From positions 1-64,000 of the IMG/VR virus record IMGVR_UViG_3300005253_000045: 64,000 nt of DNA. One strand, written 5' to 3'. The translations under genes were made by a program, and so were the position numbers. Positions 1 through 61,938 of the stretch are shown one piece after another; position 1 is the first letter of the stretch, and each line of letters opens with the position of its first letter. A model generated the notes under the pieces. It was not told the DNA's origin. It ran no database searches and worked only from the letters and a program-made list of their open reading frames with translations. The stretch comes from a virus.

Positions 1-3000
1 CCCCCGTCTACCACCCAAGAGGGGATTGAACCGCCCGTTAGTACTACGCCGGCCCCCGTACCAACACCGCCGGCGCCCACGGCCACACCAACGCCTCCGC
101 CAGAGGCCCCGCAGTTTGACCAGCCCGCAGAAGGGTTTCAATTTCGAGCGTGGCGCCCGGAGCGTCCCTCGAATCACCCTGAGGGACTTTCGTGGGATGC
201 AACAACGGCCGGAAACATTGAGCTCTCTAGGTTCGTTGAGTTCTGGGATTCACTCAACGATAATCTGTCGGGTCTTCCGCCTAATCCGGTAGAGGACATA
301 CATGAGCTCCGTGCTTCGCTGGCAGGCGACAATCCTATGCCCCTTGATGGGAGGCAAGAGGATGTCCTGGATGCTGGCACAGGCCTCTTCCTCACGTATA
401 AGAACCTTGAGGAGCACCTGAGGCAGTACGGGGAGTTCGACCCTAAGGGCATGGAGGAGCTCGAGAGGAATGTTTCTCCGGGAGTACGATTCACCGCGGA
501 GGCTATTGCACGCTCGGGGGCACTCACCCCATGGAGGGCTCTCCTCCGCTCCCTAGAGGTCATCGAGAAGGAACACCCGGACAACTACACGCAGTACCTT
601 GCTTCTGACGCGGGGCGCATTGACCTCTTCAGTAACGCCTTGATGGCGATGTACTCTACGCCAAGAGCGTCGATGAGCATACTTCACCCGGGGCAAGATG
701 CGGGCCATCTCATTGATGAGTACATGCCTGACGTCCCCTTCTTGAAGCAGAGTCTAATCTCCACGGTCGAACTCATAGGAGACCCCCTGTTCATTGGGGC
801 CACCGTACTCTTCCCGCCGGCTGGTATCGCGGCTAAAGCAGCCCTAGGTACTAAAGTAGCCGTGGGAATGGCAGTTGGTGAAGAAGCAGCCGAAGCTGTA
901 GGAGTTCCTCCGATTGTCGGTGCCCTAGCCGGCGGTGTAGCTGGGCCTGGTGTTATTGGGTTTGGTAGGGCGACCTTGCGTAACGCCGTAGCGAAGTCTC
1001 GCTGGCGCCCAGTAGCAGGAGAGCCAGCGACGGAGATGCTCATCTCCGCGGGAGAACTTTCCTCTGGGCGAGGCACAGTGATGTTCCACGGTACTACTCC
1101 TGAGAATGCTAGGAGAATTGTATCAGGGGGTTTCCGCCAGGGGGACGAGTTATTCCTTACCTCTGAGCCCGACCTGGCCGGGCGTTTTGGGGGCCGTCAT
1201 CTTCAACGTAACTTGCTTGTGGATAAGGCCGGAAAAACACCAAAGTCCACTGTACTTGCCATTGAGGTACCCGAAGGTGTTGAGATGGGCGGCAGGGAGG
1301 CTATACGAACCATTAAGGGGGCTGATGCGGGAAAGGTAAGAATCCTGGGCGAGCTCTCAGCGGAGGAAGCCGCACTTACAGGAGAGAAGTTCCTAGCCAG
1401 GATGAACCCCTACTCCCGCAATGCGGCTAATCTTGGATACAAGCCTATCGCTGGTGGCGCCGGCGGGCCTAGTCCCGATGACTTTGCTCTGAAGATAAAG
1501 GTTCACCTCGAGCGCCCGGAGTCCCAGGACTTTCTTCGTAAGGCAGCGAAGATGGTATCAGAGCGAGTTCCGGGGGTTGGACGGCGTACGCAGGAAATCA
1601 TCAACCGTATGGCTGTTGCCGATGACCCGGCCCTGAAGGCTGCGTTTGGCTGGCAGTTCCAGTTGGCCGAAGACCAGGCGGCCCGCTTCATGTCGATGGC
1701 GGCGCTACGCGGTAAGGCACTTCCCTTCGTAGAGAACGAAATCGGGCAGATATGGGTACGGACTGGTACGGAGCTCAAGAGTAAGACCACTGGGCGTGTC
1801 TTCGGTAATCTCTTCCGTCGTGGCGAGGGCGAGTGGATTGCTGGCGGGGATGTGCTGGAGAGCGTGATGGCAGGCAAGAGTAAGTACCTGAAGCGCCTTA
1901 CTGATGAACAAGTGTCCTGGATAAAAGAGGCGGAAGAGATACTGCGGCCATACATCAGCTATGCAGAGAAGGCCGCGAAGCTAACGCTGAGAAAGCGTGA
2001 AACGTGGTGGCCTAGGTTCGCTGTTGACCCCGCGAGGAAAGCCTACAACGTTCGACCGGGCGCCGGCCGCGGAAAGCCTCCAGCCCTCTTCGCCCGTGTA
2101 TTTGAAGAGCAGCAGCAGGCTATCGCAGAGTTCGGCATCAAGTACCGCCCCGGCCTACTGAACCAGTTGGAGGGTGGCATCGAGGGGTTCCAGAAGATTA
2201 CGCGGGACAACCTCATGGGTGGGTACCTCAAGAAGCAGGGTATCATTCGTATGGGACAGCGGCGTCTAGGGGAGACATACGCTACAGACCTTGGTACTAC
2301 TATCAAGGGCATTGTGGGGGAGACTCACGCCCAGGAAATCTTGAACATCATTGGTCCAGGTACGAGGAACCCAGTGATAACTATTCCCGGCCACATCAAT
2401 GACATGATGCGTATGATGCTCACAGGTTCCATGGATGCTGGCTGGGGTTCAATTCAGCTCGTGACTCTCGCTGCAAGTCCTGCCGGTCCCGTTGGATGGG
2501 GTAAGGCGATGGGCCTAGCTTTCTTCACGGCGATGAAAGACCCGAAGTTCTTCCACCGGTACATGCGTAGTAGTGCGGCGGCGCGGCAATACGCGCAGTA
2601 CGGCGGAGACGTCAGCCTTCGGACTGAGATTACACGGGCCGCAGAAGAGGGAGCCTTTGGCCTTCCTCGTGTCCCTGTTGTATCGACAGCTATAGATGTG
2701 GCCACATTTGTCCCCCGTAAAGGTATCGAGCGGCTAACTATAGGATTCGGTTCGGCCCTGGCCTATGGCCGTGTCCTTGCATTTGAGGGAATGGCTCAGT
2801 CTGTAGCGAAACCAGGACTTATGGAGCTGGCGGTTGGGGCCAAGCCTCTTGCCGGTCAGGCCCTCCATGAAGAGATGTTCCGACTTGTCCGCTTCACAGA
2901 GTCCCTGTTGGGTACGCCGCGGCTGGGTGGTGTTATTACGGCATTGCAGCATCAGATAGAATCTGCATTCGTCTGGTTCGCCACTCGTTACACCCGGTCA

Positions 3001-4611
3001 TTCTTTGGCACTGGCGCCTACATGATTGGAAAGGGCGCCACTCCCGCGCAGGCGCGAGCGACTATGGCCCGAATGGTGATAGGCGGTATGTCAATCATGT
3101 CGGGTCTCATCACGGCCAAGGGTATAGCCAATGGGCTAAGCGAGGACTCTATCCTCAAAGAAATCTCTACAGCCCTCAACCCCGCCGCTGGTAAGAAGTT
3201 CATGTCCATGGAAATTGGAGGTAGCTGGTATGGTCTGGGCGGTACGTATCGTTCGCAGATGGCTCTTATCGCAGGAATGGCCAACAAGGACAACTGGGAC
3301 TTCGAGAACTGGGAGGAATCCCTCTACGACAACCCCATAGTCCGCGGCTGGAGAGGACGCGCAGCACCCTTCACAGGCCAGGTCATGAACTTCGGCCCCA
3401 GTCTTGCCGGCCTCCTAACTGGTAACTCCGACGTCTCTGGTTCAGACTACCTTGGGTACGAGGTCAACATATCCGAGATGGTTGATGACCCCCGGGTCCT
3501 GGGGGACTACGCCCTAGACAACTTCGCTCCTATCACTCTCGATGCCCTGCTTCAGGGCCATGAGTGGGACTGGAAGACTAACCTCCCTCGGTTTGCGGCT
3601 GAGTTCATGGGCCTACGAACCTCGCCGGAGACTGCATTTGAGGCGCTCGAGCCTGTGATGAACCGTGTTTCCCAAGACCGGTTTGCTATGAACTACCGCG
3701 ACCTTGAAAACAACCTTCCAGCGCAGGACTATATTCGGAATCATCCTGATGTGGTTGCTGTGACTGAGGGGCAGATTCGCCCTATTCGGGAACGTGAGCA
3801 GTCGAAGTTGTGGCGGAAGTATCGTGAGGGGCGCGACGGTATACGAGACACCCACCTCCAGACGCGGGAGAGGGCCGAGATAGCCTACACTACCAGCCGT
3901 ATAGATGGCTCTGACTACCGGGAACAGTATGGTGAGGCGCAATCGGCTGAGTACTTCGAGCTTCGCGGCTTCAGTGAGGGCATGGGTATCGAGTTTGATG
4001 ATGAAGAGGCCGAAGCCGGTACTGTAAACGCCGCTCTGGACGCCTACTTCAGTGTCAATCTCGACGACTACCGAGATAAGAAAACCCGCGTACCCGACTG
4101 GGAAGCCTTCTACTCCGACAGGGATGCTGCTTTGGCCCTGGTTCCGCGGGAGCATATCCCCCTCGTGGAGCAATGGTTACGGCGCCGAGAGACAGAAGTA
4201 CGCCGCCATATGAGGGTAAGGTTTGGAGAGGTCGTTGAGTCCTCGGGGTACTTCCGGGTTCGAGAAAACGTAGCAGTGAACCTAGGCATCAATCTCAGTG
4301 ACCTTGAGTCAGATATTGTTCGGGGTCTGGTGGGTAGGAATCAACGAGCTACTCCAGGGGACGTCGCCCGGATAGTAGACCAGATACTGAATAGCGTGTT
4401 CTCAGAGGTGAATCCAAACGCTCCCACCATCTCGCAGCTACGGCAGGCTATGAGGGAGGCGAATCCAGAACTTGACGCCGAGCTCTTCCGGCAGGGGTTC
4501 TCTACTACGGTACGCTCTGAGGTGGCTCAAGAGACGCTTAAAGCCTATGCTCAGCGGTGGCCGAATATGGGTTACTTTGAGGCCCCACTCGCAGGCAACA
4601 TCGACGACTAG
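1..4611 (+). CDS. Giant virion-associated/ejection (polyvalent-type) protein, 5'-truncated; contains an ADP-ribosyltransferase-like segment
   Basis: Frame is open from base 1 (PPSTTQEGIEPP...DNP) into the 337 ATG, so the protein is >1530 aa. Segment MFHGTTPENARRIVSGGF...LFLTSEPDLAGRFG (~1078-1200) resembles HYE-clade ART strands 1-2. Lies immediately before scaffold and capsid genes. Confidence 0.6.
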   Translation, partial: PPSTTQEGIEPPVSTTPAPVPTPPAPTATPTPPPEAPQFDQPAEGFQFRAWRPERPSNHPEGLSWDATTAGNIELSRFVEFWDSLNDNLSGLPPNPVEDIHELRASLAGDNPMPLDGRQEDVLDAGTGLFLTYKNLEEHLRQYGEFDPKGMEELERNVSPGVRFTAEAIARSGALTPWRALLRSLEVIEKEHPDNYTQYLASDAGRIDLFSNALMAMYSTPRASMSILHPGQDAGHLIDEYMPDVPFLKQSLISTVELIGDPLFIGATVLFPPAGIAAKAALGTKVAVGMAVGEEAAEAVGVPPIVGALAGGVAGPGVIGFGRATLRNAVAKSRWRPVAGEPATEMLISAGELSSGRGTVMFHGTTPENARRIVSGGFRQGDELFLTSEPDLAGRFGGRHLQRNLLVDKAGKTPKSTVLAIEVPEGVEMGGREAIRTIKGADAGKVRILGELSAEEAALTGEKFLARMNPYSRNAANLGYKPIAGGAGGPSPDDFALKIKVHLERPESQDFLRKAAKMVSERVPGVGRRTQEIINRMAVADDPALKAAFGWQFQLAEDQAARFMSMAALRGKALPFVENEIGQIWVRTGTELKSKTTGRVFGNLFRRGEGEWIAGGDVLESVMAGKSKYLKRLTDEQVSWIKEAEEILRPYISYAEKAAKLTLRKRETWWPRFAVDPARKAYNVRPGAGRGKPPALFARVFEEQQQAIAEFGIKYRPGLLNQLEGGIEGFQKITRDNLMGGYLKKQGIIRMGQRRLGETYATDLGTTIKGIVGETHAQEILNIIGPGTRNPVITIPGHINDMMRMMLTGSMDAGWGSIQLVTLAASPAGPVGWGKAMGLAFFTAMKDPKFFHRYMRSSAAARQYAQYGGDVSLRTEITRAAEEGAFGLPRVPVVSTAIDVATFVPRKGIERLTIGFGSALAYGRVLAFEGMAQSVAKPGLMELAVGAKPLAGQALHEEMFRLVRFTESLLGTPRLGGVITALQHQIESAFVWFATRYTRSFFGTGAYMIGKGATPAQARATMARMVIGGMSIMSGLITAKGIANGLSEDSILKEISTALNPAAGKKFMSMEIGGSWYGLGGTYRSQMALIAGMANKDNWDFENWEESLYDNPIVRGWRGRAAPFTGQVMNFGPSLAGLLTGNSDVSGSDYLGYEVNISEMVDDPRVLGDYALDNFAPITLDALLQGHEWDWKTNLPRFAAEFMGLRTSPETAFEALEPVMNRVSQDRFAMNYRDLENNLPAQDYIRNHPDVVAVTEGQIRPIREREQSKLWRKYREGRDGIRDTHLQTRERAEIAYTTSRIDGSDYREQYGEAQSAEYFELRGFSEGMGIEFDDEEAEAGTVNAALDAYFSVNLDDYRDKKTRVPDWEAFYSDRDAALALVPREHIPLVEQWLRRRETEVRRHMRVRFGEVVESSGYFRVRENVAVNLGINLSDLESDIVRGLVGRNQRATPGDVARIVDQILNSVFSEVNPNAPTISQLRQAMREANPELDAELFRQGFSTTVRSEVAQETLKAYAQRWPNMGYFEAPLAGNIDD

Positions 4612-27805: not shown

Positions 27806-28960
27806 CTAGCGCTTAATGATGTTGATGTCCCTCACTTCTTCTGCGGAAGCCAGATGGATTCGGTGGCGGTGGGTAATGCCCTTATCTGGGTGAACGAAGA
27901 ACATCTCTTGACTCGGGCGGTTGGCCCGCGGCCGGCGCATCTTTAGGGCCAGTAGGGACGGGCCAACGAAGCAGCCGTTGCTGATAACGTCGCCATCAAT
28001 CTCTTCCTCGCGCTCTGAGGCGGTGTGGTGGTGACCCAACACCATGTAGTTGAGAACCTGGCCTACGATAGAGTTCATAGCCAACTTGTTCTCTACTACT
28101 CCAGTGTAGGTGGCGTGTAGGTTCACCCCATCTCCATGGCGGAGGTAGAAAGAGTAGCCAAGAATGTCCACTATCTGGAAGAAGGAGGGACTGATGTCGA
28201 ACGTGAACTTGCCCGGCGCCGCCAACTCGCAGCGGGCGGCGATAGTCTGCCACGCCATAAGCTCGATGTTGTCCGGGTCGAACGCATCCTTCTTACTGCC
28301 AGACATACGGCCGTGGTTACCAAACACCTTATACACATGAATCTTCTCGAACCGGGACTGGAGAGAGACGAGGACGTCAGTCATGTCGGCGACGAAACCA
28401 AGGAACTGGAAGTATGGGGACAACTCCATCTCCATCGCCTGGGTGCCATACATATGGCCGTTGCCCTCCATGTCGTCGCCAAGGGCGAGGATGTGGAGAA
28501 CAGGGACGTCTAGAGTCGTTTGCATCATTTGCGTGAAACGTAACACTCCGTCCCGCCAGTCGGTTAGGCGGTAGCGGGCGGTGGCGACGTCGTAACCACC
28601 GATACCCCCAGTCACCTCTGGGTCTACCTTACTTCCAAAGTGGTAGTCAGAGAAGCAGGCAATCGCGTGCTGTGCTGTCTTGAACCCCATATCCTCCACC
28701 TTAGTAGCGAGAATCTTGGCGGGTACAGGGGGTAGGGGGACGCGCTCTGTGAGGAGCTTCGAGGCCCTCTCCTCGAACTCCTCGGTGGTCATGCCCTGCT
28801 CGACCTTGGCTGTAGTGGTCTTGTTCGTCGGGGCGTTCCTATTGGCGTAGGCAAGCTGGGCCGCACGTATGCGGCACTTGTCGCTACAGTATATTGACTT
28901 CTCTCGGGTGGGCGTGGAACACTTGGTGTAGGCGCACTTAGCTTTAACCATGCTATTCAT
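27806..28960 (-). CDS. Calcineurin-like metallophosphoesterase with N-terminal Zn finger
   Basis: SDYHFG, LGDDMEG, GNHG, RHGD, GHHH. Confidence 0.85.
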   Translation of the reverse strand: MNSMVKAKCAYTKCSTPTREKSIYCSDKCRIRAAQLAYANRNAPTNKTTTAKVEQGMTTEEFEERASKLLTERVPLPPVPAKILATKVEDMGFKTAQHAIACFSDYHFGSKVDPEVTGGIGGYDVATARYRLTDWRDGVLRFTQMMQTTLDVPVLHILALGDDMEGNGHMYGTQAMEMELSPYFQFLGFVADMTDVLVSLQSRFEKIHVYKVFGNHGRMSGSKKDAFDPDNIELMAWQTIAARCELAAPGKFTFDISPSFFQIVDILGYSFYLRHGDGVNLHATYTGVVENKLAMNSIVGQVLNYMVLGHHHTASEREEEIDGDVISNGCFVGPSLLALKMRRPRANRPSQEMFFVHPDKGITHRHRIHLASAEEVRDINIIKR

Positions 28961-48774: not shown

Positions 48775-50311
48775 TATACGTTGGGCTCCGGCGTCCCTGT
48801 GTCCTCCGGTATGGTGGGGGGCTCTTCCGCCTCTACCTCTTCTGGCACCCACACGTCTACTGCGGCGAGGCGTTCCCCCGGAGCACTGGCCTTGATGCAG
48901 ACAATACCGCCGGCGTCGATGACACCGCCCTTCTCCAACGCCTCATTGACGGCATCGGAGAGACCAGCGGCGCTGATGTCGCCGGCGAAAAAAATCTCAA
49001 GATTCAGCGTTTGGTCTACTGTCTGGACGTGCTTCATCGGTCTTTCCTTTCTCCTGACAGGCTGTGCAGAACAGCTTGCGTTCAACTAGGTGGCCCGGGC
49101 AGTCGGGAGAGCTCGGGCACCTCACGTACCCCTGACATGAGGGGTCTGTTAGCTCGTCTATGTTGGTGAGTTGCGTGCGCCAGTCCTTGAAGGTTGTTGG
49201 GCACTCATCTGCGGGGACGCCGCATGTTGAGCAGTAGGCGAGGAGCTCTTGTTGCTCTGTCATGCGTCACCTAGTACTGCTACATCCTTGCAGTTCTCGC
49301 AGGCATCTCGGTCGTCTAGGAACTCATCGGTATCCTCTGAGGTTACGTCATCGCTGAGTTCTACTAGCACGTAGCCTACCGGTAGATTGCATAGTGTGAG
49401 CGTCCGGTCGTACTGGTTTTCGGCCCAGTGTAGTGTACTCATTCAGGCGCCTCCAAGCATTCTATCCGACGCATTACCTCGGCCCACGCCGCCGTGAGAA
49501 ACGGGCCTAGGACAAATGCGAAGACCCAGGCGACGGCCGGCAGCTCACTTGGTGCGACGATGAGGGCGGTGATGAGAGCCCCCCAGGTGACGACGAAGGC
49601 TATCTCTGTACCGAAGCATAGCCGGCACGACAGCCCGGCGTAGAAGAGTTTGAAGGCTGAGCCAGCGCCATTCCTGTACTTCTTGAAGAGACGATTTCGT
49701 AGAGGCTCAAACAGCGAGCCGTCGCTGATGACTCGGGTGAGCTGCCACGTCACCATGCCTAGGGCTAGAGTTCCGGCGAAGATAGCTACGAGGTGTTCAA
49801 TCACCTGTTGGTACCTCCTCCTCTAGCGGTACGGGCTCGTACTCCTCGGCTAGCTCCTGCGCAATCATGTCGCCCCCCCAGTACACCTCTAAGCCTGCTT
49901 GGCGGGGCTCGCCCGGCACCTGGCGCAGGCGTCCCAGCATCGACTGGAACTCTGGTACGTACTCTGCTAGCACCCGGTCGCCTGTGATGTCGAACATCTC
50001 ATCGTCGTCATCGGTGAAGTGGCGGGCGGTGAACCATTTGCAGCGGTAGTCCCCGTCTGTGTAGTAGAGGACGGCGACGCCCTGACTGCGCTTGCGCTCG
50101 ACTTCCGATAGTGTTGGTTCGCCTAGTATCATGCTTCCCTCTCATCCTCTCGCCGGATTACCTTATGTTCGATGTAGGTCCAGATGACACTTCCGATGTT
50201 GTGCTCAAGGCAAAGGTCTACCAGAGTGCCTCCGCTGGTTTGTGTGATTATCTGGCAGCCGCATCTTGCCTTGCCGCTTGATTGCGGGAAGAAGATGGTG
50301 TTCATGGGCAA
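48774..50311 (-). other. Small hypothetical genes, including a DUF1360-like membrane protein (49439-49804)
   Basis: 49439-49804: WQLTRVISDGSLFEPLR...LSCRLCFG with TM segments; others overlap ATGA-style. Confidence 0.55.
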
Positions 50312-51732
50312 ACCTCCTCAAACTCGACCTGACTACAAGTGTAGGCCGGCTGACTACTGTACGTTTTCAGTCGCTTCTTAGAGTGTCCCTCCAGGTACTT
50401 CCCTCTATCCATAAAGTCGAAGCAGAAAAGTCTCTCCTTACCCTCTGACAGCCTCATGCCTCTCCCGACTCTCTGAACAGTGAGGTGCGGGGCCTTACCT
50501 CCCCCCGCCATAATCAAGAAGGTTAGGGGCGGTATGTCAAGCCCTTCGTCGGCTATCTTGCTGATTACGAGGAGGTTCAGCTTTCCGGCTCGTACGTCAT
50601 CGTACGCCTGCTGCCGCACTTTGGTTGACTGCTTCCCCGCGATGAATGGGCAGTCCAGCATCTTCGCCAGCTTCGTCCCGTGCTCCAGGCGTTCCACGAG
50701 GATGGCGACGGCGCCGCTCCTACTCTCGTTCAGGCGCCGGGCGAGGTCAACGATGTAGCTGTTGCGTACTGTGTTGCTAATGATACCATATTCGACGGCT
50801 TCCGGCCACTTCTTCCAGCTTATCCGGTTCTTTGGCATTGCTATCATGAAGACATCAACAGCCACTAGATGGCCTTGCTCGGCGAGCTCATCGGCTCCAA
50901 CGTGGTGGATTGTGGGGCCGAGCCAGGAGCAGACTTTGAAGAATGTCTCAAGGTCTTCCTCCTTATACGGGGTCGCGCTGTAGCCGTAGCGCCATTTTGC
51001 AGACCAAAGGTTGGCCATCACCCGCTCGTAGCTCTTGGCGGGGAGGTGATGGGCCTCGTCAACGTGTACCTGCCCTATCTCCTCGCGTAGCCAGGTCTCG
51101 ATGCCCTCTTTCCCCTTGAGGCGGCGGTAGAGGGTCTGGAAAGTGGCGACGGTGAGGACGCGGGGTTCCCACTTGCCGTCACCAATGACGCCTATGACGT
51201 CCTGTTTATCGAAGTCCTCTAGGCCGCGGCCTAAGCCTAGTGTTTTGATAGCACGGTCGGCTGTTTGAGTCATGAGGTCTTTCCGGTGTACCAGTATCAA
51301 CCCCGGCAGACCAATGCGCCGCGCTAGTTCTAAGAGGACTTCCGTTTTGCCTGCCGCCGTTGGGTGCCATACCACGCCCCGCTCTCCCTGTTCCGCCTTT
51401 TCTATGGCCTCCGTCTGGTGTTGGCGGAACACTGTGCTGTTGTGGAGCCCGGCGAGACGGAAGTCCACGGTGGGAGCGGCCGGCCGCTCTTCTACCACCT
51501 CAACGTCGATTCCCTCCGCGTGGAGACGTGCGGCTAGCCAGGGAGTGAGGCCGGCGGCGAATCGGCCGCTCGGCGACATAATTTTTACCCAGCCGTCCCA
51601 GCCCCCGCGCTTGTATGCCCGCGTAAAAATGTATCCCTTCTGTCGATACGACAAGAGGGTACGGGCCTGATAGATATTTGGCCCCTCGAACCGGGCGTGA
51701 GTGTTGGTGACTGTGATGATGTTATGCGCCAC
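50302..51732 (-). CDS. Superfamily 2 DExH helicase (UvsW/D10-like)
   Basis: PTAAGKT, VDEAHH, YSATP, DEGLDIP, QRVGRGMR. Confidence 0.9.
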   Translation of the reverse strand: MAHNIITVTNTHARFEGPNIYQARTLLSYRQKGYIFTRAYKRGGWDGWVKIMSPSGRFAAGLTPWLAARLHAEGIDVEVVEERPAAPTVDFRLAGLHNSTVFRQHQTEAIEKAEQGERGVVWHPTAAGKTEVLLELARRIGLPGLILVHRKDLMTQTADRAIKTLGLGRGLEDFDKQDVIGVIGDGKWEPRVLTVATFQTLYRRLKGKEGIETWLREEIGQVHVDEAHHLPAKSYERVMANLWSAKWRYGYSATPYKEEDLETFFKVCSWLGPTIHHVGADELAEQGHLVAVDVFMIAMPKNRISWKKWPEAVEYGIISNTVRNSYIVDLARRLNESRSGAVAILVERLEHGTKLAKMLDCPFIAGKQSTKVRQQAYDDVRAGKLNLLVISKIADEGLDIPPLTFLIMAGGGKAPHLTVQRVGRGMRLSEGKERLFCFDFMDRGKYLEGHSKKRLKTYSSQPAYTCSQVEFEEVCP

Positions 51733-52865
51733 TACCGCCCGCCTAATCCTATCGCTGCTCTTGTATGGCCCTTCGCTCCAGTGAATCCTTCTGCTGCTGC
51801 GTAGAGTTCTGCTAACGTGTACGCCTTTGTCGCTGTGCCTTCTACTTTATGCTCTGTGAACCAGGCTTGGGCCTCCTCGGTGGTGAGCGGTTTGAACTCT
51901 ACCTCGGCGGCGCAGCGTCCCGGTCTACCCACTGCGGGGTGGAGCTTGCCCAGCGGTTCGTTCGTGGTCACGAGGGCTATGACCCTCATCCCCTGGCCAA
52001 TCATTCCATCGGACAGATTGAGGAATCGGGATAGGGCCTGCCCCTCTCTTTGGCGGGCGTCCTCCGCCAGTAGCTCACCCGCATCCTCTAGTATTAGTAG
52101 CCGCCACTTACCTTGTTCGGCGTTTGGGTGCGGAGAAGCGCGAGGTCTCGTAATGGCCGAGTCTCCGTTGTTCTCGCCCATGACTACACCCATCATGTAG
52201 GCGGCCGAACCGAAGAAAGCCTCAGGGTCAACAATATATTCGGTATTGCACCAGTGTCGCCAGGAGTATGCGAGTGCTCTCAGCGCAAAGGTCTTTCCTG
52301 TCCCTGGAGGGCCATGCCATAGTACAAGCCGCCCTCCGTGCGCGGGTTGAAACTGGGCCATTAGTTCGGTTAGAGGGGCAGCGGCTAGCTGTGAGTAGTT
52401 GCCACTGATGTCTTCCCAGTCAGGGACATCAATACGTCTTGATTGCTCAAGTGCCCCGCTGGGGCCAAGCATCCAGAAGCGAATCTGAATTGTCTTATCG
52501 TCCTTCGGGGTAGCGACTGGAAAGAGCTGTCTAACCTCATTGACGAAGTGTAGATGGGGAGTAGCGGCCAGGTCGGGGAAGGCTGTAACTACTGAAACTC
52601 CCGACCTTTCTACCATCACAAGGCCAATCCCCCCGTCGTCAAGAGTAAGGAATAATGTACCCCTCTGCATGTCCTGGTAGATGACCTTGCCTCTCCCCCC
52701 GTCGAGCTTGATGAGTTTTTCCAGCGGAGACCCAAGGTCGATAGTCCAGTTGGTGGATTGAAGGTAGGGTTTGTTCTGCGCAAGTGCCTCGTTGGTAAAT
52801 AAGTTCCATGGAAGGGCACTTACACTTGTTGAGGCCAGGTCGATTGTTGTGTCAATGGCCTTCAT
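51732..52865 (-). CDS. AAA+ ATPase (DUF5925-like N-terminus)
   Basis: HGPPGTGKT, LILEDAG, LNLSDG, TTN, RPGRC. Confidence 0.85.
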   Translation of the reverse strand: MKAIDTTIDLASTSVSALPWNLFTNEALAQNKPYLQSTNWTIDLGSPLEKLIKLDGGRGKVIYQDMQRGTLFLTLDDGGIGLVMVERSGVSVVTAFPDLAATPHLHFVNEVRQLFPVATPKDDKTIQIRFWMLGPSGALEQSRRIDVPDWEDISGNYSQLAAAPLTELMAQFQPAHGGRLVLWHGPPGTGKTFALRALAYSWRHWCNTEYIVDPEAFFGSAAYMMGVVMGENNGDSAITRPRASPHPNAEQGKWRLLILEDAGELLAEDARQREGQALSRFLNLSDGMIGQGMRVIALVTTNEPLGKLHPAVGRPGRCAAEVEFKPLTTEEAQAWFTEHKVEGTATKAYTLAELYAAAEGFTGAKGHTRAAIGLGGR

Positions 52866-52867
52866 TG

Positions 52868-53038
52868 TTACACCTCCTGCTCGTAGCTTACTAAGCCCTC
52901 GCTAGAGAGTTCGGCGAACGCAGCGCGTACAGCAGTCTTGCTGCTCCTCAGGACGCCAATGAGCTCTTCCATCACCAAGTTGGTACCCTCGGGCTGCGCC
53001 CTCAGGTGCTTGTACAGCGCGTAGGCTATTGGTGAGAT
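52868..53038 (-). CDS. 56-aa winged-HTH protein with apparent ATC start
   Basis: (I/M)SPIAYALYKHL...MEELIGVLRSSKTAVRAAFAELSSEGLV; SD GAGGAGGT 5 nt before ATC; no in-frame ATG/GTG/TTG upstream before a TGA. Confidence 0.55.
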   Translation of the reverse strand: MSPIAYALYKHLRAQPEGTNLVMEELIGVLRSSKTAVRAAFAELSSEGLVSYEQEV

Positions 53039-53057
53039 GCTGCACCTCCTCTGTTTC

Positions 53058-53205
53058 TCATGGTCTCGCGCCTGTTGCCTCTCAACGTGGGCCTCCCGCA
53101 GGAGAACTCACCCGCGTCAGTGGCGTGTACACATTACTCCTCATACCCCACCTACCTGGGAGCACTTGCTACGAGGTAGGGAGAGGCACAGGCGTGAACC
53201 CATGA
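53058..53205 (-). ncRNA. Unknown 148-nt structured RNA immediately 3' of the mini-tmRNA
   Basis: ~25-bp closing stem (53181-53205 with 53058-53083); internal hairpins CCTACCT/AGGTAGG and CGCGGG/CCTGCG. Confidence 0.55.
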
Positions 53206-53287
53206 TGGTGGAGGTGGCCAGTGTCGAACTGGCGTCCGGCCGGCCGCGCCTTAGCGCGTTATCCAACCGTCGAGCCCTCTCACCCCC
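53206..53287 (-). ncRNA. Mini-tmRNA: tRNA-like domain only (82 nt)
   Basis: GGGGGTG/CACCTCC acceptor stem with G3-U70, A73, CCA; stemless D-loop AGAGGGCTCGAC; helix CGGTTGG/CCGGCCG; GAC; T-arm GCCAG-TTCGACA-CTGGC; TATAAT 5 nt upstream. Confidence 0.75.
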
Positions 53288-54900
53288 ATACTATTATAAC
53301 GTATTATCGACGCGAGCGTTTCACCTTGTTACTCCGCGCCTTGCGCCGGCGCCAGCACTTGTCTGCTCCGGTCAGGCAGAGCCATACGTTGTCTCTCCCA
53401 TAGTAACGGCACGCCCGCTCCATCCGGCAGGTAGCGCACCGCTGTAACTGGTCTATGGGCTCTTCGTTTAGGCCGTCGTTGCACTCATCCATGACAGCAC
53501 TTACCCGTAGGGTTGAGCATTTCACGCTTCGCTATCGCGTTCTTTGGTATCTTCTGACGCCACGCCCGGCGACCTTCTACCACCATCTCTAGACCCTCGG
53601 TTAGCAGCCACAGACGCGGCGGGTTTCCAATAGTTATTGCCCCGAACTGCCATAGCCAGGGGGGTGTCGCGTAGACGGTCATGTCCCCACGTTCGTCAGA
53701 GGCGAGAAGGGCGGTCTCCCCGTCGTATAGTGTGTACTTCATTCTGATACCTCCTCAAAGTTGCGGCAGGTTGGGCAGGGCGTACCATACGGCCCTGTGT
53801 CCAGACCCATGACTCTATCACAGGCGAGGACGCTAGTCCATGTACAAGGCAGCCTGCCTTGTGCTCGGCGGGCGCACCTCTCGCAGTATGCTTGTGTTCC
53901 CTTCTCATCCATGAGTATAGCCTCTCCGGGGCACAGGCGCATGGAGCATCCGCCGCGGCCGGCCTTCGACTCCGCAGTGAAGACTCGATGATTGAACGCC
54001 TTTAGTACCACCTTGCGGCGCGGCGGGGTACTGAGAGCCGTGCAGCGAAAGAGGTGGTACATCGGGGCGGTCGGGCAGTATCCCCCGTAGACGATGCGCC
54101 CGGTTCCCCGTTCGTGATTGTGAATGATGCCAGACGGTCGGTTGTTAAGCTGGCGGTCTCCGCGTAGAGCCCGACGTCGTATGTCCTGCGGTATCGGCCC
54201 CATCATGGTGCTCCACTGCCTCGGCATGTCAGCTTTTATTGGAGTCATCGCCCTCTTCCCCCTCTGCGAAGTTCGCCCTCCATTCCCCTGGCTTGATGAG
54301 CGCGAGCAGCGTTATTGCCCGCCGCCACCAGGGGCTAGCCTCGTCATGGGGTCGGGTGAGAAAGAGCCCTACCTCACGATGGTCTTCATCGATAGCGATG
54401 AGGCCCACCATTGACTCTGAGTCGATAGCATCTACGACCCCGCCCCTGTAGCCAATGGCGAGGACGGCGACGGGCTTGGGGTCGCTGTTCGCCACGAGTG
54501 CGATGGTAAACTGGTCTCCGCTCTCATGTATCTCATCGTAGAGATGACCGGCCCCGCAGACATGGCAGTATACGCCCATTTGGTCTATGTCGTATCCTTC
54601 TCGTGTCCATACGCCGTTGCTATCGAGAGGGTACTCGAATGTCTCGCGCATGACGAGCTCCCCGTCGCAGTTCAAGCAGTTCATACGCGATTCTCCGATT
54701 CGGCCTTGTCTATGACATGGCCCTCGAATACAGCCACGACGAAGGCACCCTCGCGGGCCGAGTCTTCGCGAAGTGCCGCCTCAATAGCGTGCTCGACTGT
54801 GGGCGCCTGTACCCATGCAACGTAGGTGTCCTGCTCCCGGCTGTCAATGTAGAAGCCGACGACGGTGTATGGTAGTAGCTTTCTGCTCATCTTGCCCCTC

Positions 54901-55248
54901 CTATCCCCGCCGTATCAGGTAAGTCGTACCGTCGAACTCGACGGAAGTGTAGTCCCTTTGTACGTCTTTGGCCCACCGCTCCCAGTCTATGTAGGATTCC
55001 ATTTGACTGCCGGGGTCAACATATCCTACGTCATAGGCGAAGTCTCGGGCATAGTCCTCGAACTCCTCCTCTGGGATGAGTGTCCTGTCTCCGTGGACGC
55101 TGTCTAGGTCGCCGCCTAGGTCAGTAGTGAGAAGCTTGAGTGCGGCCCAGCGCAAGCTATCCTCTTCGTCAAGTCCCCCATTGGACTCGGCGAGGTCGTT
55201 GAGCTCGTCTAGTTCTTGGGCAAGGTCGTCTAGGTCTAGGTACTCCAT
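54901..55248 (-). CDS. ArdA-like acidic antirestriction (DNA-mimic) protein
   Basis: Very acidic; FEDYARDFAYDVG...SYIDWERWAKD resembles the ArdA C-terminal domain. Confidence 0.55.
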   Translation of the reverse strand: MEYLDLDDLAQELDELNDLAESNGGLDEEDSLRWAALKLLTTDLGGDLDSVHGDRTLIPEEEFEDYARDFAYDVGYVDPGSQMESYIDWERWAKDVQRDYTSVEFDGTTYLIRRG

Positions 55249-61419: not shown

Positions 61420-61938
61420 GGTACGCGCTCCTATCCCGGAAACCCCTTGTCAGTGACACCTGATAACGGAGCGTTGCCGTGTGGCGAGTCTGACGTCCCG
61501 CTCTCTGTGTCCCTCTCTATTTATTTACCGAGTGAGCCTCACGAGGTTGCTACCCGTTGCCCCTCTGTCCGCCTCTGCTAGTGCGTTGTCCGTGCGTGCT
61601 AGCTGCGCGGGGGCCGTAGTCACCAACCCCTGTCCGGTATGCTCCTGGCCGGCCATACGGGCCGCTATGCCCTGCCGGCCATTGGAGTGCTGTGTCTTGG
61701 CCTATCTCATCAGATACGGGCGGCCATTCCCGTATGACTACCGCCATAGTTTCGACTGTGCTAGGCGTATCTGCTCTTAGCTTCCGTGCTAACACCTAAC
61801 CAACATCGGGTACATACCCATACGATACCGTTGTACCGTTCAATCTTGCTTCCGCACTCCCCGCACGGGCTTTCGGCGTGTCGCCATGCATATACTCGTG
61901 TCATTGTCGCTACTCCTCCTCTCGCCTCTATCATCGGT

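Follow-up and report, generated by a model that had tools for sequence, protein, structure and literature searches.

A probable tmRNA consisting of the tRNA-like domain alone in an uncultured marine-sediment phage, and similar mini-tmRNAs in other phages

Trans-translation is the main bacterial pathway of ribosome rescue and a drug target, and laboratory constructs of the tRNA-like domain (TLD) of transfer-messenger RNA (tmRNA), used in co-crystals with SmpB and in in vitro assays, join the 5' and 3' ends of tmRNA by a short P2 loop. Nearly the same design, man-made in those constructs, is found in an 82-nt RNA gene on the minus strand of an uncultured phage genome, at positions 53206-53287 of the stretch of DNA analyzed here. 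This stretch, hereafter the window, comprises positions 1 to 64,000 of the IMG/VR virus record IMGVR_UViG_3300005253_000045, which measures 75,628 bp, has direct terminal repeats and is rated complete. The phage comes from marine sediment, and the stretch occurs only in three DNA runs of one marine-sediment metagenome study, which may be its source. The element contains a complete TLD and has neither a tag reading frame nor pseudoknots; we refer to it as a mini-tmRNA.

A natural molecule of this kind is already on record. The papers on the tmRNA Website list 'Mycobacterium phage DS6A (TLD only)' (tmID 11587; PMC4131195; PMC11915505), so that the kind is not new, and the initial annotation of the present locus, according to which the known phage tmRNAs are full length, is to be corrected on this point. 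PMC11915505 places the DS6A molecule beside the tmRNAs of mitochondria and some plastids that lack a coding sequence (CDS-less tmRNAs). In E. coli, the DS6A TLD-only tmRNA is reported to inhibit the endogenous tmRNA (PMC4131195; PMC11915505, citing Mao et al. 2009), and PMC4131195 describes a DS6A-like TLD-only molecule as a strong inhibitor of tmRNA that perhaps acts through titration of SmpB. Furthermore, according to Shimizu and Ueda (2006), cited in PMC3895274, a truncated tmRNA that consists of the TLD alone accepts a peptide in vitro. In the searchable papers on truncated or TLD-only tmRNAs, DS6A is the one phage example described, and the breadth of the family presented below is not.

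Structure and identity of the 82-nt element

All parts of a tmRNA TLD can be recognized in the element (Table 1). In the acceptor stem P1, G3, the identity base of alanyl-tRNA synthetase (AlaRS), pairs with U76 of the RNA, which corresponds to tRNA position 70; the discriminator is A79, and the CCA end is encoded, so that the complete AlaRS identity set (G3-U70, A73 and CCA) is present. The stemless analogue of the D-loop is 1 nt shorter than the Rfam consensus. The interior of helix P2 (A26-G44, 19 nt) consists of AUAA, the 5-bp GC hairpin CGCGC-UAAG-GCGCG with a UAAG loop, and a terminal G, and occupies the place of the approximately 300 nt that in a complete tmRNA hold the pseudoknots and the tag frame. 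Pseudoknots PK1-PK4 are absent, and so is the mRNA-like domain with its resume codon, tag frame and stop codon; 306 positions of the Rfam tmRNA model RF00023 are unrepresented. The centroid structure of the thermodynamic fold recovers the same three helices: the acceptor stem, the T arm, and P2 together with the hairpin that it encloses. On re-reading of positions 53206-53287, the minus-strand transcription given in the initial annotation proved exact and its segments as described; its assignments of G3-U70 with A73, of the stemless D-loop with UCGAC, and of P2, the linker and the T arm agree with the sequence, the RF00023 alignment and the fold.

The scan of the 64-kb window with Rfam models yielded one tmRNA match, to RF00023 (53 bits; gathering score, 47), and the alignment reaches both termini of the model, with 15 nt in place of the central 306 positions, as expected under the large internal replacement that the initial annotation had proposed. 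A covariance model built from the elements of nine other phages, with the element of the window left out (R1), scores the latter at 59 bits (E 1e-10). Of the computational checks suggested in that annotation, Infernal with the Rfam tmRNA model thus recovers both termini and a large deletion between them, whereas ARAGORN, which requires a tag to call a tmRNA, reports neither a tRNA nor a tmRNA in the window. A better match to a canonical tRNA or a Y RNA had been named as one outcome that would speak against the assignment, and these models yielded nothing: the tRNA model RF00005 has no matches across the whole phage genome at E<=0.001, and a cloverleaf with a D stem and an anticodon arm is not seen; the mitochondrial tmRNA model RF02544 and the Y-RNA families do not match the element at E<=1.

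Three more specific candidates were rejected. For a permuted, two-piece tmRNA (RF04321, RF01850), the RF04321 score is 19 bits against a cut-off of 47 (E 0.12), and the order of the parts is 5' then 3', as initially annotated. A fragment of ssrA of the attP type is at odds with the presence of both gene ends and with the lack of any match to PF00589 or PF00239 in the complete genome. A tag of zero length, with a stop codon directly after the 5' strand of P2, would call for a stop triplet at the start of the interior, and such a triplet is found within the first five interior nucleotides in just 28 of 103 sequences of the family introduced below; an A-rich stretch that derives from P2 of tmRNA is the better description of this start.

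The closest counterpart is the DS6A element, which R1 locates at 28478-28560 of NC_023744 (55 bits), between gp33 and gp34, where the record, like that of the present phage, carries no annotation. Both molecules are phage-encoded and nearly equal in length (83 nt in DS6A and 82 nt here), and both have P1 with G3-U70, a stemless D-loop that ends in UCGAC, a short P2, an A-rich stretch, a GC hairpin of 4-5 bp and a T arm; the conserved TLD positions are common to them in an alignment of five sequences. DS6A differs in its linker (GCAC instead of GGAC), in its ACUA end without an encoded CCA, and in the interior; furthermore, DS6A encodes RtcB and QueC, whereas the phage of the window is of marine-sediment origin and its complete genome has no RtcB, and an inhibition experiment exists for the DS6A type alone. 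Given that the two share a layout and are both recognized by R1, the element is almost certainly a tmRNA reduced to its TLD, of the DS6A kind, and it is a divergent, previously undescribed member of a kind of which a single phage example has been published.

Other described systems are less similar. The tmRNAs of jakobid and other protist mitochondria (RF02544) and the CDS-less plastid tmRNAs of about 65 nt have likewise lost the mRNA-like region and combine an alanine-type TLD with SmpB, but they are organellar, belong to the cell's own system and are served by a nucleus-encoded SmpB. The full-length phage tmRNAs, for example, those of the mycobacteriophage Bxz1 group and Bacillus phage G and the two-piece tmRNAs of marine phages such as Melnitz, are also phage-borne ssrA genes, often located near tRNA genes; unlike the element described here, they retain the tag frame and the pseudoknots, so that trans-translation can be completed. 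Bacterial Y RNA (YrlA) modules are anticodon-less mimics of tRNA as well, but they pair with Ro60/Rsr and differ in overall architecture.

Full-length or permuted phage tmRNAs were also encountered in this work, in an IMG/VR locus considered below (L046) and in Alcaligenes phage vB_AfaP_QDWS595 (NC_070849.1; locus L031). In the latter, a complete permuted tmRNA of the betaproteobacterial type (RF04321, 111 bits; RF01850, 94 bits) lies at 2012-3853, flanked by about nine tRNA genes; nothing is annotated there in RefSeq.

Mini-tmRNAs in other phages

Similar elements were sought with a loose search pattern that fixed GGGG..GA, UCGAC, GGAC, UUCGA and UCCACCA and left a central stretch of 20-50 nt open. 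The pattern matches 29 other IMG/VR contigs and at least 120 metagenome contigs. Among the genomes of 185,579 prokaryote species, one genome for each species, it matches only 6 contigs, five of them contigs of metagenome-assembled genomes (MAGs) and one a scaffold of a draft genome. Among the matches listed, there are 102 distinct sequences of 71-91 nt, with the mode at 81. In these sequences, the T arm, whose pairs the pattern does not constrain, is paired in 509 of 510 cells, the outer five pairs of P2 in 472 of 510, and P1 is a perfect 7-bp helix in 96 of the 102 when a one-base register shift is allowed. The alignment of the 24 distinct IMG/VR members, which was fitted to the structure, a caveat on its pairing count, has 98% of the cells paired and changes on both sides at 13 of 17 pairs, including compensatory changes at all five modelled P2 pairs; this covariation was reached by none of 500 shuffles, and when the partner was slid by 1-3 columns, pairing fell to 48-57%. 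UCGAC is invariant in the family alignment, and G1-G4, G7, U70 and CCA were fixed by the search pattern. The family is real, structurally conserved and under structural selection, and consists mostly of phage sequences.

These observations bear on the trivial explanation that the element is a non-functional remnant, that is, a full-length ssrA with the middle deleted or an attP-type ssrA fragment left by integration or excision. Phages often integrate into ssrA and carry its fragments (PMC9004378; PMC4131195), and the element is absent from the nearest relatives of its phage (see below), as a remnant might be. However, both ends are present and perfectly paired, whereas attP fragments hold the 3' part only; the complete genome encodes neither a tyrosine nor a serine recombinase; and independent deletions would not produce the narrow shared length and the compensatory changes in every helix that characterize more than 100 distinct sequences among the matches listed. 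The covariation of the family largely refutes the remnant explanation, which we consider very improbable.

The members of the family are handled like phage tRNA genes. A tRNA gene lies within 300 nt in 24 of the 102 distinct loci, on the same strand in all 24 and within 5 nt in 13, and one member is located inside an array of 27 tRNA genes. Blast with a family member led to two cultured Streptomyces phages that carry unannotated copies within tRNA arrays, Shaeky between tRNA-Phe and tRNA-Leu (R1, 56 bits) and LuckySocke between tRNA-Val and tRNA-Ser (R1, 51 bits). No conserved protein partner of the family was found. As a single finding, the element of the window is ordinary; the main interest lies in the breadth of the family. 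The mini-tmRNA form is common in uncultured phages, much more so than the literature suggests, and mini-tmRNAs are invisible to ARAGORN; even the records of DS6A and of cultured Streptomyces phages do not annotate them.

Several partial or aberrant matches were also recorded. Two Casimicrobiaceae MAG contigs and a metagenome contig (L054, L055 and L071) contain pattern matches of about 89 nt with the interior tmRNA motif GCUAAGCAUGUAG, an imperfect P1 and no P2 pairing; these look like differently truncated forms of ssrA rather than members of the phage mini family. In Gordonia phage GodonK (NC_048176.1; locus L032), a piece at about 1990-2032, between annotated tRNA-Val and tRNA-Thr genes, consists of a T arm and a 3' acceptor strand with an ACCA end and shares 91% identity with the 3' third of the window element; a matching 5' half of a tmRNA is not recognized there (R1, 24 bits, E 0.012), and the piece is perhaps half of a molecule, or else a tRNA-like gene that has diverged strongly. 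In two loci (L003, 2976-3318; L020, 10275-10670), ARAGORN makes long 'tmRNA' calls with implausible tags, in which the 3' end of a mini-tmRNA is paired with upstream sequence; such calls may hide mini-tmRNAs in automated annotations.

Possible functions

By analogy with DS6A, the probable role of the element is to interfere with the way in which the host rescues and tags stalled ribosomes. In this scheme, the RNA would be transcribed from its own promoter-like site or by read-through and trimmed like a tRNA; host AlaRS would charge it with alanine via G3-U70 and A73, and host SmpB and EF-Tu would bind the alanyl-RNA. Because the resume codon, the tag frame and the stop codon are missing, trans-translation could not be completed; the RNA would sequester SmpB and, possibly, occupy stalled ribosomes or dead-end on them, and host tmRNA-dependent tagging and rescue would be blocked, diverted or reduced during infection. 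The complete phage genome contains no gene for SmpB, no tRNA gene and no gene with an RF-1/ArfB-type domain, so that any protein partner must come from the host. The role that the initial annotation proposed, an SmpB/EF-Tu decoy or a non-tagging rescue RNA, would be the same function as the one published for DS6A, and nothing in the present analysis contradicts it; the presence of an ArdA anti-restriction homologue 1.6 kb upstream on the same strand fits this picture. We hold with moderate confidence that the element both is a TLD-only tmRNA and acts by sequestering SmpB and blocking trans-translation. If so, trans-translation would be blocked or short-circuited by a natural RNA of 80 nt, which could serve as a compact tool and would indicate that translation quality control is manipulated by phages.

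Several observations weigh against this account. Among the members of the family, the inhibition result is limited to DS6A and comes second-hand, through papers that cite Mao et al. 2009. The fold of the single sequence is only modestly more stable than those of its shuffles (z -2.3). Identity to the other members of the family reaches 76% at most, too low for a judgement on the conservation of this particular sequence. The D-loop of the window element is shared by no metagenome contig scanned, blastn of 82 nt against phage isolates gave matches to the 3' end only, and blastn of 1.1 kb against the phage isolate collection found no close relative of the locus.

The nearest relatives of the phage lack the element, which likewise counts against the proposed role. 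An exact-peptide scan for homologues of the neighbouring AAA ATPase found none, and an alignment-based scan found 19 viral loci; the comparison of gene context covers these 19 loci, and the contig that encodes a 63%-identical ATPase homologue (P0002) lies outside it. In the two nearest loci, L033 and L034 (56% and 46% identity of the ATPase protein, respectively), the gene order is common with the window. The order in the window (orf169, orf73, the slot that holds the mini-tmRNA, a small winged helix-turn-helix open reading frame (ORF), the AAA ATPase and the UvsW helicase) is identical in L033, where the slot is filled by a hydrophobic ORF of 32 codons; in L034, the winged-helix ORF lies on the other side of the ATPase, which directly follows orf73. 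The mini-tmRNA is absent from the syntenic slot in both, and none of the near loci among the 19 contains one. The element is, therefore, dispensable for that phage lineage; it is specific to its lineage and inserted into a variable slot, as would be expected for an accessory gene.

The same features of the RNA could instead serve rescue without tagging, in which the alanylated TLD, with host SmpB and EF-Tu, would enter the empty A site and take over the nascent chain without adding a degradation tag, and the complex would be resolved by host ArfA/RF2, by ArfB, or by peptidyl-tRNA hydrolase after splitting, as proposed for jakobid mitochondria. According to PMC11915505, CDS-less tmRNAs have persisted in mitochondria alongside SmpB, probably as an aid in dealing with incomplete mRNAs, and Shimizu and Ueda (2006), cited in PMC3895274, report peptidyl transfer in vitro with the TLD alone. 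The strict retention of G3-U70, A73 and CCA, along with the perfect P1 in most family members, fits a need for charging that would, perhaps, be superfluous for pure titration of SmpB, and placement in tRNA arrays fits a supply-side function in translation. However, the constancy of G1-G4, G7, U70 and CCA in the family is not independent evidence, because the search pattern fixed these positions, and the phage contributes neither a release-factor-like gene nor SmpB. We regard tag-less rescue as unlikely for this element. Doubtful to a similar degree is the notion of a working minimal rescue or anti-defence RNA, more than an inhibitor, that would take the stalled peptide onto its alanine, pass the ribosome on to release or hydrolase factors of the host and so clear ribosomes stalled on mRNAs cut by defence RNases, with phage proteins spared from marking for ClpXP; if it held, translation quality control would be the target of an entire class of counter-defence genes in phage 'tRNA-array' regions.

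A further possibility is that the RNA is a decoy or sponge for some other host factor or defence nuclease that recognizes the shape of tRNA or tmRNA, such as tRNA-cleaving defence effectors, RNase R or AlaRS, or else an RNA cofactor of a phage protein. The gene block is shared with the ArdA-like anti-restriction gene, there are reports of phage proteins that employ fragments of t(m)RNA against nucleases of the host (AcrIIIA1, PMC11662646), and homologues of the adjacent DUF5925-AAA ATPase adjoin tRNA arrays, and once a full tmRNA, in other phages. Nevertheless, the parts conserved in the family (UCGAC, GGAC, P2) are specific to tmRNA rather than generic tRNA features, the molecule has no anticodon loop, the usual target of tRNA-cleaving effectors, and a protein partner is not conserved: the relatives keep the neighbouring genes without the RNA. 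A target other than the trans-translation machinery, accordingly, appears improbable, although less so than the remnant explanation.

Genomic context and transcription signals

The phage is distant from isolates, with a DNA polymerase that is at most 24% identical to any in the phage isolate collection; its genes include those for the major head protein, a tail fibre, a DnaB-type helicase and an exonuclease. The mini-tmRNA lies within a long run of minus-strand genes and is an accessory gene in the early/replication gene block (Table 1). It is the sole tRNA-like gene of this complete phage, which means that a mini-tmRNA can stand alone, outside a tRNA set. The antisense ORFs over the element (53037-53447, plus strand, 136 aa) and the neighbouring small ORFs have no Pfam or PHROG matches.

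Table 1. Parts of the mini-tmRNA, candidate signals and neighbouring genes (window coordinates)
Feature	Position	Strand	Basis or remark
Mini-tmRNA gene	53206..53287	-	RF00023, positions 1-374 of the model (53 bits, E 5e-18); R1 (59 bits); sequence read
P1 (acceptor stem), 5' strand GGGGGUG, G1-G7	53281..53287	-	pairs with 53210-53216 CACCUCC, C72-C78, including G3-U
Stemless D-loop analogue AGAGGGCUCGAC, 12 nt, A8-C19, GG and conserved UCGAC end	53269..53280	-	tmRNA model positions 8-20, one deletion
P2 helix GGUUGG/CCGGCC, G20-G25 with C45-C50, 6 bp, two G-U pairs, and 19-nt interior	53238..53268	-	fold, family covariation, DS6A-like layout
GGAC linker between P2 and T arm, 51-54	53234..53237	-	Rfam consensus GGAC; family-invariant, partly because the pattern demanded GGAC
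T arm GCCAG-UUCGACA-CUGGC, G55-G59 with C67-C71, loop UUCGACA	53217..53233	-	sequence, Rfam alignment, fold
P1 3' strand CACCUCC, discriminator A and encoded CCA	53206..53216	-	sequence, Rfam alignment
TATAAT hexamer, 5 nt (AGUAU) upstream of G1	53293..53298	-	consensus match alone
Promoter-like pair GTAACA-18-GATAAT	53303-53332	-	consensus match alone
Imperfect hairpin, 17 nt 3' of the CCA end, no U run	53143..53189	-	fold of 53140-53205, -26.6 kcal/mol, z -2.2
ArdA-like anti-restriction gene	54901-55248	-	upstream of the element by 1.6 kb
Small ORFs without family matches	upstream of the element	-	
Conserved 57-codon ORF between mini-tmRNA and AAA ATPase	52868-53041	-	weak GntR-type winged-helix match, E 0.002, below cut-off
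DUF5925-AAA ATPase	51732-52865	-	downstream of the element
UvsW-like helicase	50302-51732	-	downstream of the element

The TATAAT hexamer that the initial annotation had placed 5 nt before G1 is indeed there. This hexamer is not enriched in the window (7 occurrences against about 12 expected by chance), so that it is its position alone that is suggestive of a promoter. Farther upstream, the stop codon of a 73-aa ORF (53304-53525) falls inside the GATAAT box of the promoter-like pair, and transcription by read-through followed by RNase P trimming may, therefore, be equally possible. Downstream of the element, no intrinsic terminator was predicted; the modelled hairpin past the CCA end weakly suggests a possible 3' processing or termination structure.

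The 57-codon ORF between the mini-tmRNA and the ATPase is 62-66% identical to ORFs of the related phages L033 and L034. It starts with ATC exactly where L033 has ATG, with AGGAGGTG 6 nt upstream, and is absent from ordinary ORF lists; the sequence suggests a non-canonical start or a mutation of the start codon.

Three distant phages (IMG/VR loci L042, L046 and L051) encode a homologue of the DUF5925-AAA ATPase no more than about 3 kb from a tRNA array, and in L046, a full-length tmRNA (84 bits) is located 740 nt upstream of the homologue. The proximity of the ATPase to tRNA-like genes may reflect a shared early region alone or a real link.

Finally, the same minus-strand block of small early ORFs contains a match to the type II hammerhead ribozyme (RF02276) at window positions 61696-61757 (minus strand; 39 bits; gathering score, 37; E 2e-4), in which the core boxes CUGAUGA and CGAAAC are aligned.

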